NCBI GenBank assembly: GCA_023267755.1
Contig: JAHFMR010000006.1
Span: forward strand, 1 to 41,270
From: a bacterium
Lineage (GTDB): Bacteria > Patescibacteriota > Minisyncoccia > Phycocordibacterales > Phycocordibacteraceae
Length of the DNA stretch: 41,270 nt
Reading direction: 5' to 3'
In this document: in pieces, positions 18,018 through 36,040 of the stretch
Layout of the letters: each line of letters starts with the position of its first letter
How positions within the stretch are numbered: the first letter of the stretch is position 1
Translations under genes and position numbers: made by a program
Notes under the pieces: model-generated
Seen by the model: only the letters and a program-made list of their open reading frames with translations
Database searches by the model: none
Told to the model about the DNA's origin: nothing

Positions 18018-18890
18018 ATGTTGAAAATCTTGTGCATCGCAGGGCCGACCGCCTCAGGCAAGTCAAGTCGAGCTGTCGAAGAAGCGCTCGCGCGTGATGG
18101 TGAGGTTATTTCTATCGACTCACGTCAGGTCTATCGCGGGCTCGATATCGGGACCGAGAAGATATCGGCTACCGAAATGCGCGGCGTGCCGCACCATCTA
18201 ATAGATATCCGCAATCCCGAGGAGAATTATTCTGCCGGCGACTTTGTCACCGATGCAATACGCTTGATTGAAGAAATCACAGCGCGTGGGAACCTGCCGA
18301 TACTTGTCGGCGGGACGCACTTCTACTTCGATGCGCTTCTTAACGGCCTCCCAATCGGTGTCGACGCCAATCCGCAGCTGCGTGAAGAGCTCGAGCAGCT
18401 CTCGACCGAGGAGCTGTATGCGCGCGTCCGCCAAGCGGACGCGCGCCGTGCCGCAGAGCTGGACCCGCAGAACCGTCGCCGACTTATCCGCGCGCTCGAG
18501 ATTATCGCCTCCCTTGGGCACGTTCCACTCCGACACGAGGGGCACCCTCGTGCTGCACGAGGGTGCCCCTCGTGGGAGGTCGAGTGGATAGTGATTGACC
18601 CGTCGCGTGAAGAGCTGCGAGAGAGAATTAACACACGTCTCGCCACCGCCTTTAAGCGTGACCTCATCGAGGAGGTGCGCCAGGTGCGTACCCGTGTCGG
18701 CGATACGCGCCTTAACGAGCTTGGGCTCGAATATAGAATAGTCGGCGAGTACGTGTCCTCCTCCGCTGAAGCTACGGAGGACACGGCGCGTATCCAAGAA
18801 AAATTATTGCCGGTTCTATCGGCGAAGCTTTGGCAGTATGCCCGCCGCCAGAAAGCCTGGCTCCGCAAGCTTGGCCACTCGGCGTCCTAA
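18018..18890 (+). CDS. miaA: tRNA dimethylallyltransferase
   Basis: GPTASGKS, DSRQVYRGLDIGTEK, PHHLID, VGGTHFY, YARRQKAW. Confidence 0.95.
   Translation: MLKILCIAGPTASGKSSRAVEEALARDGEVISIDSRQVYRGLDIGTEKISATEMRGVPHHLIDIRNPEENYSAGDFVTDAIRLIEEITARGNLPILVGGTHFYFDALLNGLPIGVDANPQLREELEQLSTEELYARVRQADARRAAELDPQNRRRLIRALEIIASLGHVPLRHEGHPRAARGCPSWEVEWIVIDPSREELRERINTRLATAFKRDLIEEVRQVRTRVGDTRLNELGLEYRIVGEYVSSSAEATEDTARIQEKLLPVLSAKLWQYARRQKAWLRKLGHSAS
18534..18574. repeat. Inverted REP-like doublet inside miaA
   Basis: CACGAGGGGCACCCTCGTGC-T-GCACGAGGGTGCCCCTCGTG; perfect 20-bp arms, each arm itself a hairpin with a 3-nt loop. Confidence 0.9.
18752..18785. repeat. Second palindrome inside miaA
   Basis: CGTGTCCTC-CTCCGCTGAAGCTACG-GAGGACACG; encodes VSSSAEATEDT. 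Confidence 0.7.
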
Positions 18891-34687: not shown

Positions 34688-34704
34688 ACTCTTATAAAAT
34701 AACA

Positions 34705-34727
34705 CGCGCGACCCTCCGGGTCGCGCG
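34705..34727 (-). terminator. Hairpin, likely terminator of the 35047-34745 gene
   Basis: CGCGCGACCC-TCC-GGGTCGCGCG followed by TGTTATTTT on the minus strand. Confidence 0.6.
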
Positions 34728-34744
34728 CAATCAACATCTCCAGT

Positions 34745-35047
34745 TCAAGCTATCCGGAGAATCTTCTTGAGCTTCCTTTCTCCTTTCTGAAAAGCCCTTA
34801 TCCTCTCGAGAGTCTGAAGGACTTTTGCTGCCGCCTCTTCCTCCGTTTCGCCGTAGGCAAACGTATCCTTGGTCTCCGACGGATGGAGTTTGTCGAGACC
34901 CCCGGTACCCGGTGTCACAACACGCACCAAGTATCTCGCCGGGCAATTCGGACTATATTCGACTTGGTAGACCAACCGACGCAACAGCTTCATCACGTCG
35001 CTGGTTACAACCCGCTTCTCTTCACTCTTCTTTTCCGCACGGCTCAT
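34745..35047 (-). CDS. Hypothetical protein (100 aa)
   Basis: Start MSRAEKK preceded by AGGGAG; no family recognised. Confidence 0.6.
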   Translation of the reverse strand: MSRAEKKSEEKRVVTSDVMKLLRRLVYQVEYSPNCPARYLVRVVTPGTGGLDKLHPSETKDTFAYGETEEEAAAKVLQTLERIRAFQKGERKLKKILRIA

Positions 35048-35133
35048 GACTAATCTCCCTTGTTTGTGAAAAAACAATGAAATACCAAAACTTCCCCGAT
35101 AGTACTCTCCTCCCTCCATCCCCGCAATCTGTC

Positions 35134-35152
35134 TACAAGGTTCAACCTTGTA
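35134..35152. repeat. REP-like palindrome upstream of the transposase
   Basis: TACAAGGT-TCA-ACCTTGTA. Confidence 0.9.
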
Positions 35153-35180
35153 AAAATATACCGCTATAATAAGGGGTGCT

Positions 35181-35840
35181 ATGGCACGCACTTTTTCATT
35201 CGCTCCCGGTGAGTTTTATCACTTGTATAATCGCGGCACAGAAAAGCGGAATATATTCACTTCTAAAGCAGACCGCGACCGGTTCCTTACGCTTCTCTAC
35301 CTAGCAAACCAAGACATTCCCGCTGACTTAAAATTACAAGGTTCAACCTTGTTAGAGATAGTGAAACCAAAAGCGGGAGCTCCGCTTGTCGAGATCGTCT
35401 GTTATTGCCTCATGCCGAATCATTTCCACTTACTAGTACGCGAATTAGAAGACGGTGGGATTAGTAAATTTATGCAAAAAATTACGACTGGATACACGAT
35501 GTATTTCAATAAACGCTCCGACCGGAATGGCGCTCTCTTCCAAGGAAGATTTAAAGCGACTCACGTAGCTGATGATCGATACCTGCGCTACCTCATCTCA
35601 TACATTCATCTAAACCCTGTAAAACTTATCGAACCAAAGTGGAAAGAGACGGGTATTGCCAATCAAGTACACGCCGAGCGCTACCTCGAGACATATACTG
35701 CTTCAAGTTATCCCGATTATCTAGGTAAAAAACGCGCTGAAGGAATGATTCTTACTAAAGAAGCTCTGCCCGAATATTTCTCCTCTGGCTCCGACTTCAA
35801 AACCTTCGTCACAGAATGGCTTACCTATAAGTCCGATTAG
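35181..35840 (+). mobile_element. Y1/HUH tyrosine transposase (IS200-like, REP-associated RAYT-type)
   Basis: YHLYNRG, YCLMPNHFHLL (HUH), LFQGRFK, YIHLNP; no TnpB; bracketed by identical palindromes. Confidence 0.88.
35335..35352. repeat. Copy of the same palindrome inside the transposase ORF
   Basis: TACAAGGTTCAACCTTGT, read as LQGSTL. Confidence 0.9.
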
Positions 35841-35861
35841 TACAAGGTTCAACCTTGTACT
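35839..35861. repeat. REP-like palindrome at the transposase stop
   Basis: AGTACAAGGT-TCA-ACCTTGTACT. Confidence 0.9.
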
Positions 35862-35868
35862 TAGGAGC

Positions 35869-36021
35869 CTATACCTTGGTTCGCCAATTTATTTCAAAAC
35901 AAATTGAATGCTTACCTGATATGTTCCATTTGGAAAATCTCAGCCAGAGGAATTGAAACTTGTTGTCGGCGATTTTCCCAAAACCAAACCGATTCAACGT
36001 AAGCTCTATATCTATAGACAT
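35869..36021 (-). CDS. Possible small AT-rich ORF (50 aa)
   Basis: MSIDIELTLNRFGFGKIADNKFQFLWLRFSKWNISGKHSICFEINWRTKV fills the gap between gyrA and the palindrome. Confidence 0.35.
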   Translation of the reverse strand: MSIDIELTLNRFGFGKIADNKFQFLWLRFSKWNISGKHSICFEINWRTKV

Positions 36022-36040
36022 ACGCTGGGATGTTGATGTT

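Follow-up and report, generated by a model that had tools for sequence, protein, structure and literature searches.

The DNA analysed here (the window) is a stretch of 41,270 nucleotides of contig JAHFMR010000006.1, from a bacterium of the Patescibacteriota, and the element in question is a gene at 35181-35840 for a protein akin to the transposases associated with repetitive extragenic palindromes (REPs), together with a short palindrome that lies before this gene, in frame within it and on its stop codon. Having a copy in frame is a feature of the family, seen at a position in a variable surface loop that is common to many relatives, and sequence comparison indicates that a gene keeps its copies identical although its synonymous sites are nearly saturated. 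We interpret the whole, with moderate confidence, as a variant of the REPtron in which an ongoing process at the DNA level keeps the hairpin copies alike and in which these copies probably restrain expression of the gene, the mechanism being one that we infer.

A RAYT-like gene and its palindrome

The gene is the sole sizeable open reading frame (ORF) within a low-GC stretch (GC 0.41-0.45 vs 0.55-0.63 around), with a GC content of 0.44 against 0.55-0.58 in its flanks. Judged from its sequence and a structural model, it encodes an intact ssDNA (single-stranded DNA) nuclease or transposase of the HUH/Y1 fold. The earlier note on this DNA had described a transposase-type gene of the Y1/HUH kind bracketed by, and containing, one palindrome, a description borne out by the match to Pfam Y1_Tnp (PF01797; E 3.4e-10, 40.5 bits, cut-off 23) and by the three copies located (Table 1). 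Among 82 aligned family members, the histidines of the HUH motif (H81/H83, 35421-35429) are each conserved in at least 90% of the sequences and the catalytic Tyr141 (35601-35603) is invariant, and an extension of about 70 amino acids follows the tyrosine helix at the C terminus.

The relation to the IS200 and REP-associated tyrosine transposase (RAYT) groups was judged by profile and fold comparisons. The closest profile is NCBIfam REP_Tyr_transpos (NF047646), which all 82 members match (best E 8.7e-17), the window protein at 51.4 bits, below the 80-bit cut-off; the IS200 transposase profile (NF033573) finds only weak matches in three of the 82 (E 0.002 or worse) and none in the window protein. 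An AlphaFold model built on the same alignment (pLDDT 93.7) has as its top structural match in the PDB the E. coli RAYT bound to a REP hairpin (4ER8_A; E 7.2e-6; TM score 0.52 on the query and 0.67 on the target), followed by transposases of the IS608/ISDra2 type at ranks 2 to 38. At the level of sequence, a profile of the 82 relatives had no match among PDB sequences at E <= 0.01, and the subfamily profile reached 4ER8 only marginally (E 0.13). The gene belongs to a large Patescibacteria clade to which the RAYTs are closest.

The 18-mer TACAAGGTTCAACCTTGT occurs exactly three times in the window (35134-35151, 35335-35352 and 35841-35858), in one orientation as the earlier note had reported, always on the plus strand and with an identical loop base, and 100 dinucleotide-preserving shuffles of the window yielded no match to it even with up to three mismatches tolerated. 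The first copy ends 12 nt upstream of a TATAAT box and 28 nt upstream of the ATG (35181), the second lies 66 nt upstream of the HUH motif, counted to its first His codon (35421), and the third overlaps the TAG stop (35838-35840). Folded as ssDNA, on either strand, the three copies give -5.3 to -8.9 kcal/mol. In the AlphaFold model, the second copy falls into a surface loop (residues 44-68), the region of lowest confidence, between helix 29-41 and the strand 70-78 that leads into the HUH motif. The 5' GTAG tag is absent from the flanks of every copy, and the ORF list of the island has no TnpB-sized ORF, both in agreement with what had been noted before. Throughout the genome searched (583,495 bases in 21 contigs, 98.7% complete), there is one further copy of the 18-mer, on the opposite strand (C19:99055-99071) and 11 nt beyond the stop codon of a gene for a class II aminoacyl-tRNA synthetase, which brings the total to four.

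Table 1. Positions of the gene, its palindrome copies and related features (window coordinates; those beginning with C give another contig of the genome and the position in it)
Feature	Position	Strand	Remarks
Palindrome copy 1	35134..35152		19 nt, perfect; TACAAGGTT-C-AACCTTGTA
TATAAT, -10-like box	35165..35170	+	10 nt upstream of ATG
RAYT-like HUH/Y1 gene	35181..35840	+	219 aa, intact; Pfam, NCBIfam, conserved residues, fold
Palindrome copy 2	35335..35352		in frame, residues 52-57, LQGSTL
Palindrome copy 3	35839..35861		23 nt, 11-bp arms; AGTACAAGGTT-C-AACCTTGTACT
Low-GC spacer	35860..36046		187 nt, between copy 3 and gyrA stop
Paralog-family palindromes, in frame	C4:21205, C6:35993, C11:8888, C16:28846, C7:3839		in genes for AlaRS, LigA, TsaD, TrmD and DNA polymerase III delta-family

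The inner copy among relatives and the level of constraint

Two surveys of relatives were made. The first covered 83 of 89 matches in the order, where 29 of 41 genomes had them; the other six, which were left out, were the shortest partial matches. A perfect hairpin (stem of at least 7) was present within 150 nt upstream in 75 of these 83 genes and downstream in 64, the two being of one family in 52, and 27 genes contain one or more hairpins of their own flank family internally (34 hairpins in total), which concentrate at reference residues 52-57 (24 genes) and 152-166 (8 genes), the latter site directly after the catalytic-Tyr helix. The second survey drew on at least 594 relatives within the subfamily of the window and used the best 80, from assemblies of Kaiser-, Adler-, Nomura-, Yonath-, Taylor-, Lloyd-, Campbell-bacteria and other named Patescibacteria, of which 79 remained once a duplicate of the first survey (L013 = L137) was removed. 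Here, an upstream hairpin was found in 72 genes, a downstream one in 63, both of one family in 47 and an inner cognate in 37, with 33 inner copies within +120 to +185, where they lie at +152 to +174. Homologues with their own flank motif at the same loop, the check proposed in the earlier note, therefore amount to 24/83 and 33/79 in the two surveys. A looser test, decayed copies included, gave a significant inner match in 29/79 genes, 26 of them at residues 50-69. Relatives that lack a perfect inner hairpin often still have a decayed version of it there (15-17 of 19-21 positions), and the loop is not longer in genes that have the inner copy than in those that lack it. In a maximum-likelihood tree, genes with the copy at the first site cluster, 11 changes being needed against 21 in shuffles. 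Among all 163 surveyed Y1 genes only one (L068, G034:C1:65950-67964) has an in-frame stop; the 82-sequence alignment omits it, the hairpin survey and the tree include it with its stop written as X, and it has cognate hairpins inside and upstream despite that stop.

The ten nearest relatives, each 219 amino acids long and at 68-100% protein identity, have a third-codon identity of just 35-56%, and all of them carry the inner copy at the same nucleotides (+154/+155). Within each group defined by its flank palindrome, the inner 17-mer is 100% identical. From one group to another, the outer pair goes from A..T to C..G and the loop from TTCAA to TCGAA, changes that are two-sided and found in all three copies. 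The self-insertion suggested by the earlier note is not sustained in the sense of a one-off or recent event, since the inner copy is present in 10/10 nearest relatives, where it changes together with the flanks. In the other large subfamily, the loop peptide shifts with the palindrome, for example from V..Y to S..R via two-sided stem changes. That the inner match stems from chance, or from convergence at the protein level through selection on the loop peptide, has next to no probability left: it is refuted by the window shuffles (0/100), by 20 codon shuffles per gene of the first survey, which produced 0.0 cognate inner hairpins, and by the comparison of third codon positions with the 17-mer, and the peptide alters whenever the palindrome does. 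When genes were paired with the flank hairpins of other subfamilies, only 17 matches in 5242 pairs were obtained.

The stems are interrupted in no more than 6 of 327 cognate hairpins, in two of these by G:T. The apical 7-10 bp are common to the copies of one gene, and the outer parts of the stems often differ among them yet are palindromic at each site. Because the copies are identical despite near-saturated synonymous sites, change on both sides of the stem and keep Watson-Crick pairs, the constraint acts on the DNA and not on the protein or on an RNA fold; selection on an RNA fold, tested through G:T pairs, was rejected (2 of 327 stems). The palindrome, perfect and 17-23 bp long, is a low-copy REP-like repeat specific to this gene lineage; every paralog and ortholog has one of its own, and these sequences follow the tree of the proteins. 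The idea that the copies keep a fixed strand orientation was rejected as well. The loop of the upstream hairpin is oriented as in the downstream one in 45 genes and flipped in 50, and relative to the inner copy it is the same in 20 and flipped in 34, so the common orientation pointed out earlier holds in the window but fails as a rule for the family.

The geometry around the start and stop codons is also conserved. Of the genes, 141/161 have a TAnnnT box whose end lies 4-12 nt (mode 6) upstream of the start codon, against 16/163 control windows, and a Shine-Dalgarno-like motif is seen in just 4/163 family genes; for these two reasons the transcripts are most likely of the leaderless type. In most genes, the upstream hairpin ends 0-20 nt before the -10-like box. 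A full sigma-70 consensus scan of 34700-36200 returned no -35/-10 pair, the -10-like box alone being supported; the first copy, like the upstream hairpin of relatives, would occupy the place of a -35 element and spacer, which bears on the idea of autoregulation. At the other end, roughly half of the genes have a downstream hairpin whose first nucleotide lies -2 to +5 nt from where the stop codon ends. In E. coli, REPs within about 15 nt of a stop codon reduce expression via ribosome stalling, and if that effect holds here the third copy would also restrain expression.

One alternative is that the hairpins are RNA-level elements unrelated to the enzyme, namely terminators, attenuators or RNase sites, whose link to the Y1 gene is coincidental. 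Copy 3 on the stop codon, the fourth genomic copy 11 nt past a tRNA synthetase gene and a scan in which the inner palindrome, read on the minus strand, resembles a terminator all fit such a role. We nevertheless regard it as improbable, since the upstream copy would lie outside a transcript whose -10 box stands 4-12 nt ahead of the ATG, copies 1 and 3 have no T tract behind them, pairs of the G:U type are hardly used, the loop orientation flips freely and the hairpin sequence co-diversifies with the protein.

Reused positions, a possible mechanism and known systems

The genome has five Y1 homologs, all intact and 32-40% identical, and these are flanked by five different palindromes, one each, whose families count four copies for the window and 6, 15, 3 and 2 for the others. 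No second near-identical copy of the gene exists in the genome (one at 100%, the next best at 40%). The paralog on contig C5 (minus strand) mirrors the layout of the window with an unrelated 25-nt palindrome, which is placed upstream, in frame 202 nt further (201 nt in the window) and past the stop. Palindromes of the paralog families are also in frame in the genes for AlaRS, LigA (NAD-dependent DNA ligase), TsaD, TrmD, MiaA and DNA_pol3_delta2 (DNA polymerase III delta-family), and that of the C2 paralog, with two mismatches, is in frame at 11355-11379 of the window, in an ORF of the exo/endonuclease/phosphatase family (11206-12063, plus strand). In all, the genome contains 213 perfect hairpins (stem >=8, loop <=5) against 46 in shuffles. 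Further low-copy families of perfect palindromes, with arms TTCAAGGT… and TACATAGG…, were observed at C1:2804, C13:210 and C6:22950 and at C12:1560 and C9:122; they resemble hairpins of Y1 genes of other genomes and have no adjoining Y1 gene here.

The miaA gene (18018-18890, plus strand) holds, at 18535-18573, an inverted pair of the palindrome of the C5 paralog, translated in frame in a loop, and the same loop has a perfect palindrome in 13 of the 23 genomes of the genus, each one different and several without any gain in length; three of the ten tested match a hairpin that adjoins a Y1 gene in that genome. Positions are thus reused as sequences turn over, a pattern that makes repeated re-insertion at a reusable landing site the main rival of our interpretation, and a plausible one. 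According to it, which generalises the self-insertion of the earlier note, the inner copy would not be inherited in step with the flanks but would have arisen independently in many lineages, the current hairpin being newly inserted into, or written over, a loop that is permissive or preferred. The tree, which demands at least 8-11 changes for the copy at the first site, and the dispersed palindromes in frame in housekeeping genes agree with it as well, but genes with the inner copy are not longer there than those without, all ten nearest relatives share the copy at +154/+155 and decayed hairpins are frequent at that very place in relatives without a perfect one; on these grounds we doubt it.

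In the REPtron variant that we favor, the enzyme would bind the hairpin as ssDNA, by analogy with the binding of REP by the E. coli RAYT, and, at landing sites that stay fixed, copying or overwriting time and again would keep the copies alike. The copying would most likely be done by the enzyme itself, with a preference for its own gene, which it may meet first because a leaderless transcript would be translated on the spot; short-tract gene conversion is an alternative agent. Lying across the -35/spacer region of the promoter, inside the message and on the stop codon, all three hairpins could be expected to lower the expression of a potentially dangerous nuclease, and the inner one would keep enzyme and target genetically inseparable. 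The copies might hence serve expression self-restraint, the linkage of enzyme and target, or nothing at all. A bolder formulation, which we consider doubtful and offer tentatively, is that the hairpins are fixed landing pads (the own promoter, coding loop and stop, and loops of essential genes such as miaA) that the Y1 enzyme repeatedly overwrites with its current hairpin, so that positions persist while the sequence turns over with the specificity of the enzyme, and that the in-frame copy acts as a protected reference which holds enzyme and target together and throttles the expression of the enzyme.

Several points weigh against the REPtron interpretation. A perfect palindrome without GTAG tag or bulge, in only four genomic copies, is unlike classical REPs, the window protein stays at 51 bits where the RAYT cut-off is 80, and its sequence similarity to 4ER8 is marginal. 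The loop orientation is not conserved, which speaks against a strand-specific role and would allow the hairpins to be passengers. The inner copy is missing from 56/83 relatives of the first survey, entire subclades having none, so it is not required for function, and it requires at least 8 changes on well-supported branches (8-11 gains or losses), so that an old copy repeatedly lost is inseparable from one repeatedly gained. Between the methyltransferase gene and gyrA, where the gene resides in the window, genome G011 has another Y1 subfamily with its own hairpins, which means that the units do move on long time scales. Finally, the binding or cleavage of the cognate hairpin by the protein is a prediction.

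A REPtron is a RAYT, or TnpA-REP, gene flanked by its cognate REPs, either as bacterial interspersed mosaic elements (BIMEs) or as REPINs (E. coli RayT/YafM, PMC3479197; Nunvar 2010, PMC2817692; Quentin 2018, 10.1101/279083; PMC8266576), and the co-diversification of enzyme and palindrome is known for two TnpA-REP groups (PMC8266576). The locus in the window resembles it in the HUH/Y1 fold, with 4ER8 as best structural match and a RAYT model as best profile, in a gene that is single-copy per lineage and inherited vertically, with a syntenic ortholog in a congeneric genome (G024), and in a bracketing palindrome that is found elsewhere in the genome and diversifies together with the enzyme. It differs in that the palindromes are perfect and have neither the GTAG/CGTC tag nor a bulge, while the stems of classical REPs are imperfect; in that copies number four in the window family and 2-15 in the others, compared to tens to hundreds; and in the five orthogonal enzyme-palindrome pairs within a single genome of 583 kb. 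Moreover, the gene holds a cognate copy in frame, at one or two fixed loops; a leaderless-type promoter adjoins the upstream copy; about 70 amino acids make up the C-terminal extension, against about 25 in E. coli; and the protein scores under the NCBIfam RAYT cut-off.

Intragenic REPs and the palindromic elements of Rickettsia (RPEs) are also found in frame in protein genes (Di Nocera 2013, PMC3733652; Ogata 2000 cited there). Common to them and to the palindromes of this genome are the translation of a short palindrome in loops of functional, often essential genes (AlaRS, LigA, TsaD, TrmD and MiaA here) and a repeat terminus that supplies or overlaps the stop codon, but in the present case the host gene is that of the presumed enzyme itself, the position is common to a large clade and the inner copy changes with the flanks. 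Among HUH initiators, a nick site inside the own gene is known from the origin in gene A of phiX174 and from that in repC of pT181. There as well as here, where the target is presumed, the coding sequence of an HUH enzyme holds its own DNA target; the phiX174 and pT181 sites, however, are replication origins of replicons used once per round, whereas the unit in the window has three or more copies and is chromosomal and non-replicative. The literature covers RAYT-flanking REPs, the way in which enzyme and REP evolve together and REPs that lie within genes other than that of the RAYT (PMC3479197, PMC8266576, PMC3733652, 10.1101/279083). Full-text searches and passages of these four sources, supplements aside, mention neither a REP inside a RAYT gene nor the Patescibacteria, and no paper among those found describes the layout seen here.

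How RAYTs recognize, spread and maintain REPs is still poorly understood. The clade described here, with at least 594 relatives among species-representative genomes, offers hundreds of natural enzyme-hairpin pairs, each with three or more copies of a simple perfect hairpin co-changing with the protein, and thereby a data set for the recognition rules of HUH/Y1 enzymes, which already serve as sequence-specific ssDNA tags and tools. The in-frame copies in its own gene and in essential genes illustrate how a reduced genome with almost no intergenic space writes a repeat system into protein loops, and the fixed geometry at a leaderless promoter and a stop codon provides a testable model of self-limitation for a domesticated nuclease. 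If landing pads do exist, they would represent a way of maintaining repeats for which REP/RAYT systems offer no described precedent, as well as a natural co-variation table for a programmable code of ssDNA hairpin recognition.

Residence of the unit and the methyltransferase-gyrA slot

Rather than a multi-copy insertion sequence, the unit is a resident of long standing. In G024, an ortholog at 72% protein identity keeps the same order of methyltransferase, Y1 gene and gyrA, and the third-codon identity between the two genes is 41%. A recent horizontal arrival as the cause of the low GC content was rejected, because the five paralogs and the relatives checked share it, which makes it a family trait. 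These data bear on a further alternative, that of a minimal insertion sequence of the IS200 type whose outer hairpins are the transposition ends of the whole unit, the inner copy being incidental. IS200-type elements have perfect palindromic ends (PMC8266576), and the TnpA of the IS200/IS605 group (IS200, IS608, ISDra2; PDB 2A6O, 2XM3, 2F4F) shares with the protein studied here the Y1 catalytic core and with its gene the bordering hairpins. Hairpins at both ends of the Y1 gene, its GC content of 0.44 between richer flanks, a slot that is empty in some genomes and differently occupied in others, and a strain-level difference of 187 nt that terminates exactly at the third palindrome could all be accommodated by such an element. 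We consider it unlikely all the same: there is no second gene copy, nor TnpB, and the paralogs are just 32-40% identical; the third-codon identity of the syntenic ortholog implies long residence; low GC shared by five paralogs is no mark of recent arrival; palindromes are found away from any Y1 gene, including a distant solo copy, besides the one in frame; and the RAYT profile is matched by 82/82 members against 3/82 for that of IS200. A multi-copy IS200 with hairpins only at its ends, which would have refuted the earlier note, was accordingly not what we found, and the tests contradict a classical IS200 as they do a role at the RNA level alone and chance.

The slot itself, between the methyltransferase gene and gyrA (window 34706-36040; loci L198-L222), is variable among genomes. 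It has about 50 nt and no Y1 gene in G013 and G006, 390-440 nt of unrelated DNA in three genomes, the Y1 subfamily of the window in the source genome (G000) and in G024, and another Y1 subfamily, as mentioned above, in G011. One contig of a co-occurring strain (run X1, depth 5.1), which is weak evidence, has 8 nt instead of 35860-36046, with the break exactly at the 3' end of copy 3. Since the occupancy of the slot varies, the replacement in X1 starts at the third copy and G024 has a fourth copy, units and neighbouring segments are gained and lost beside palindromes on long time scales. Joints between the three palindromes were absent from the contigs of three groundwater DNA runs of one study, in which rare variants are dropped, the replacement in X1 being the sole joint at a palindrome.

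Some minor observations concern this slot. The fourth palindrome copy of G024 (locus L207, G024:C5) is located 6 nt from the gyrA stop; about 440 nt separate the Y1 stop from the gyrA stop there, and about 400 nt, possibly with a small minus-strand ORF, lie between the terminal copy of the gene and the fourth palindrome. In the strain of the X1 contig, the third palindrome would be 2 nt from the gyrA stop, between convergent genes. At the left edge of the slot, a GC-rich hairpin followed by AATCAACA is conserved in most of the loci among those listed. Between the methyltransferase and Y1 genes of the window there is an ORF of 100 amino acids on the minus strand (34745-35047) without Pfam match at E 0.1, whose sequence (…YGETEEEAAAKVLQTL…) may resemble that of HicB-type antitoxins, and a homolog of it, 47% identical, is found in the same slot of G010, which has no Y1 gene there.

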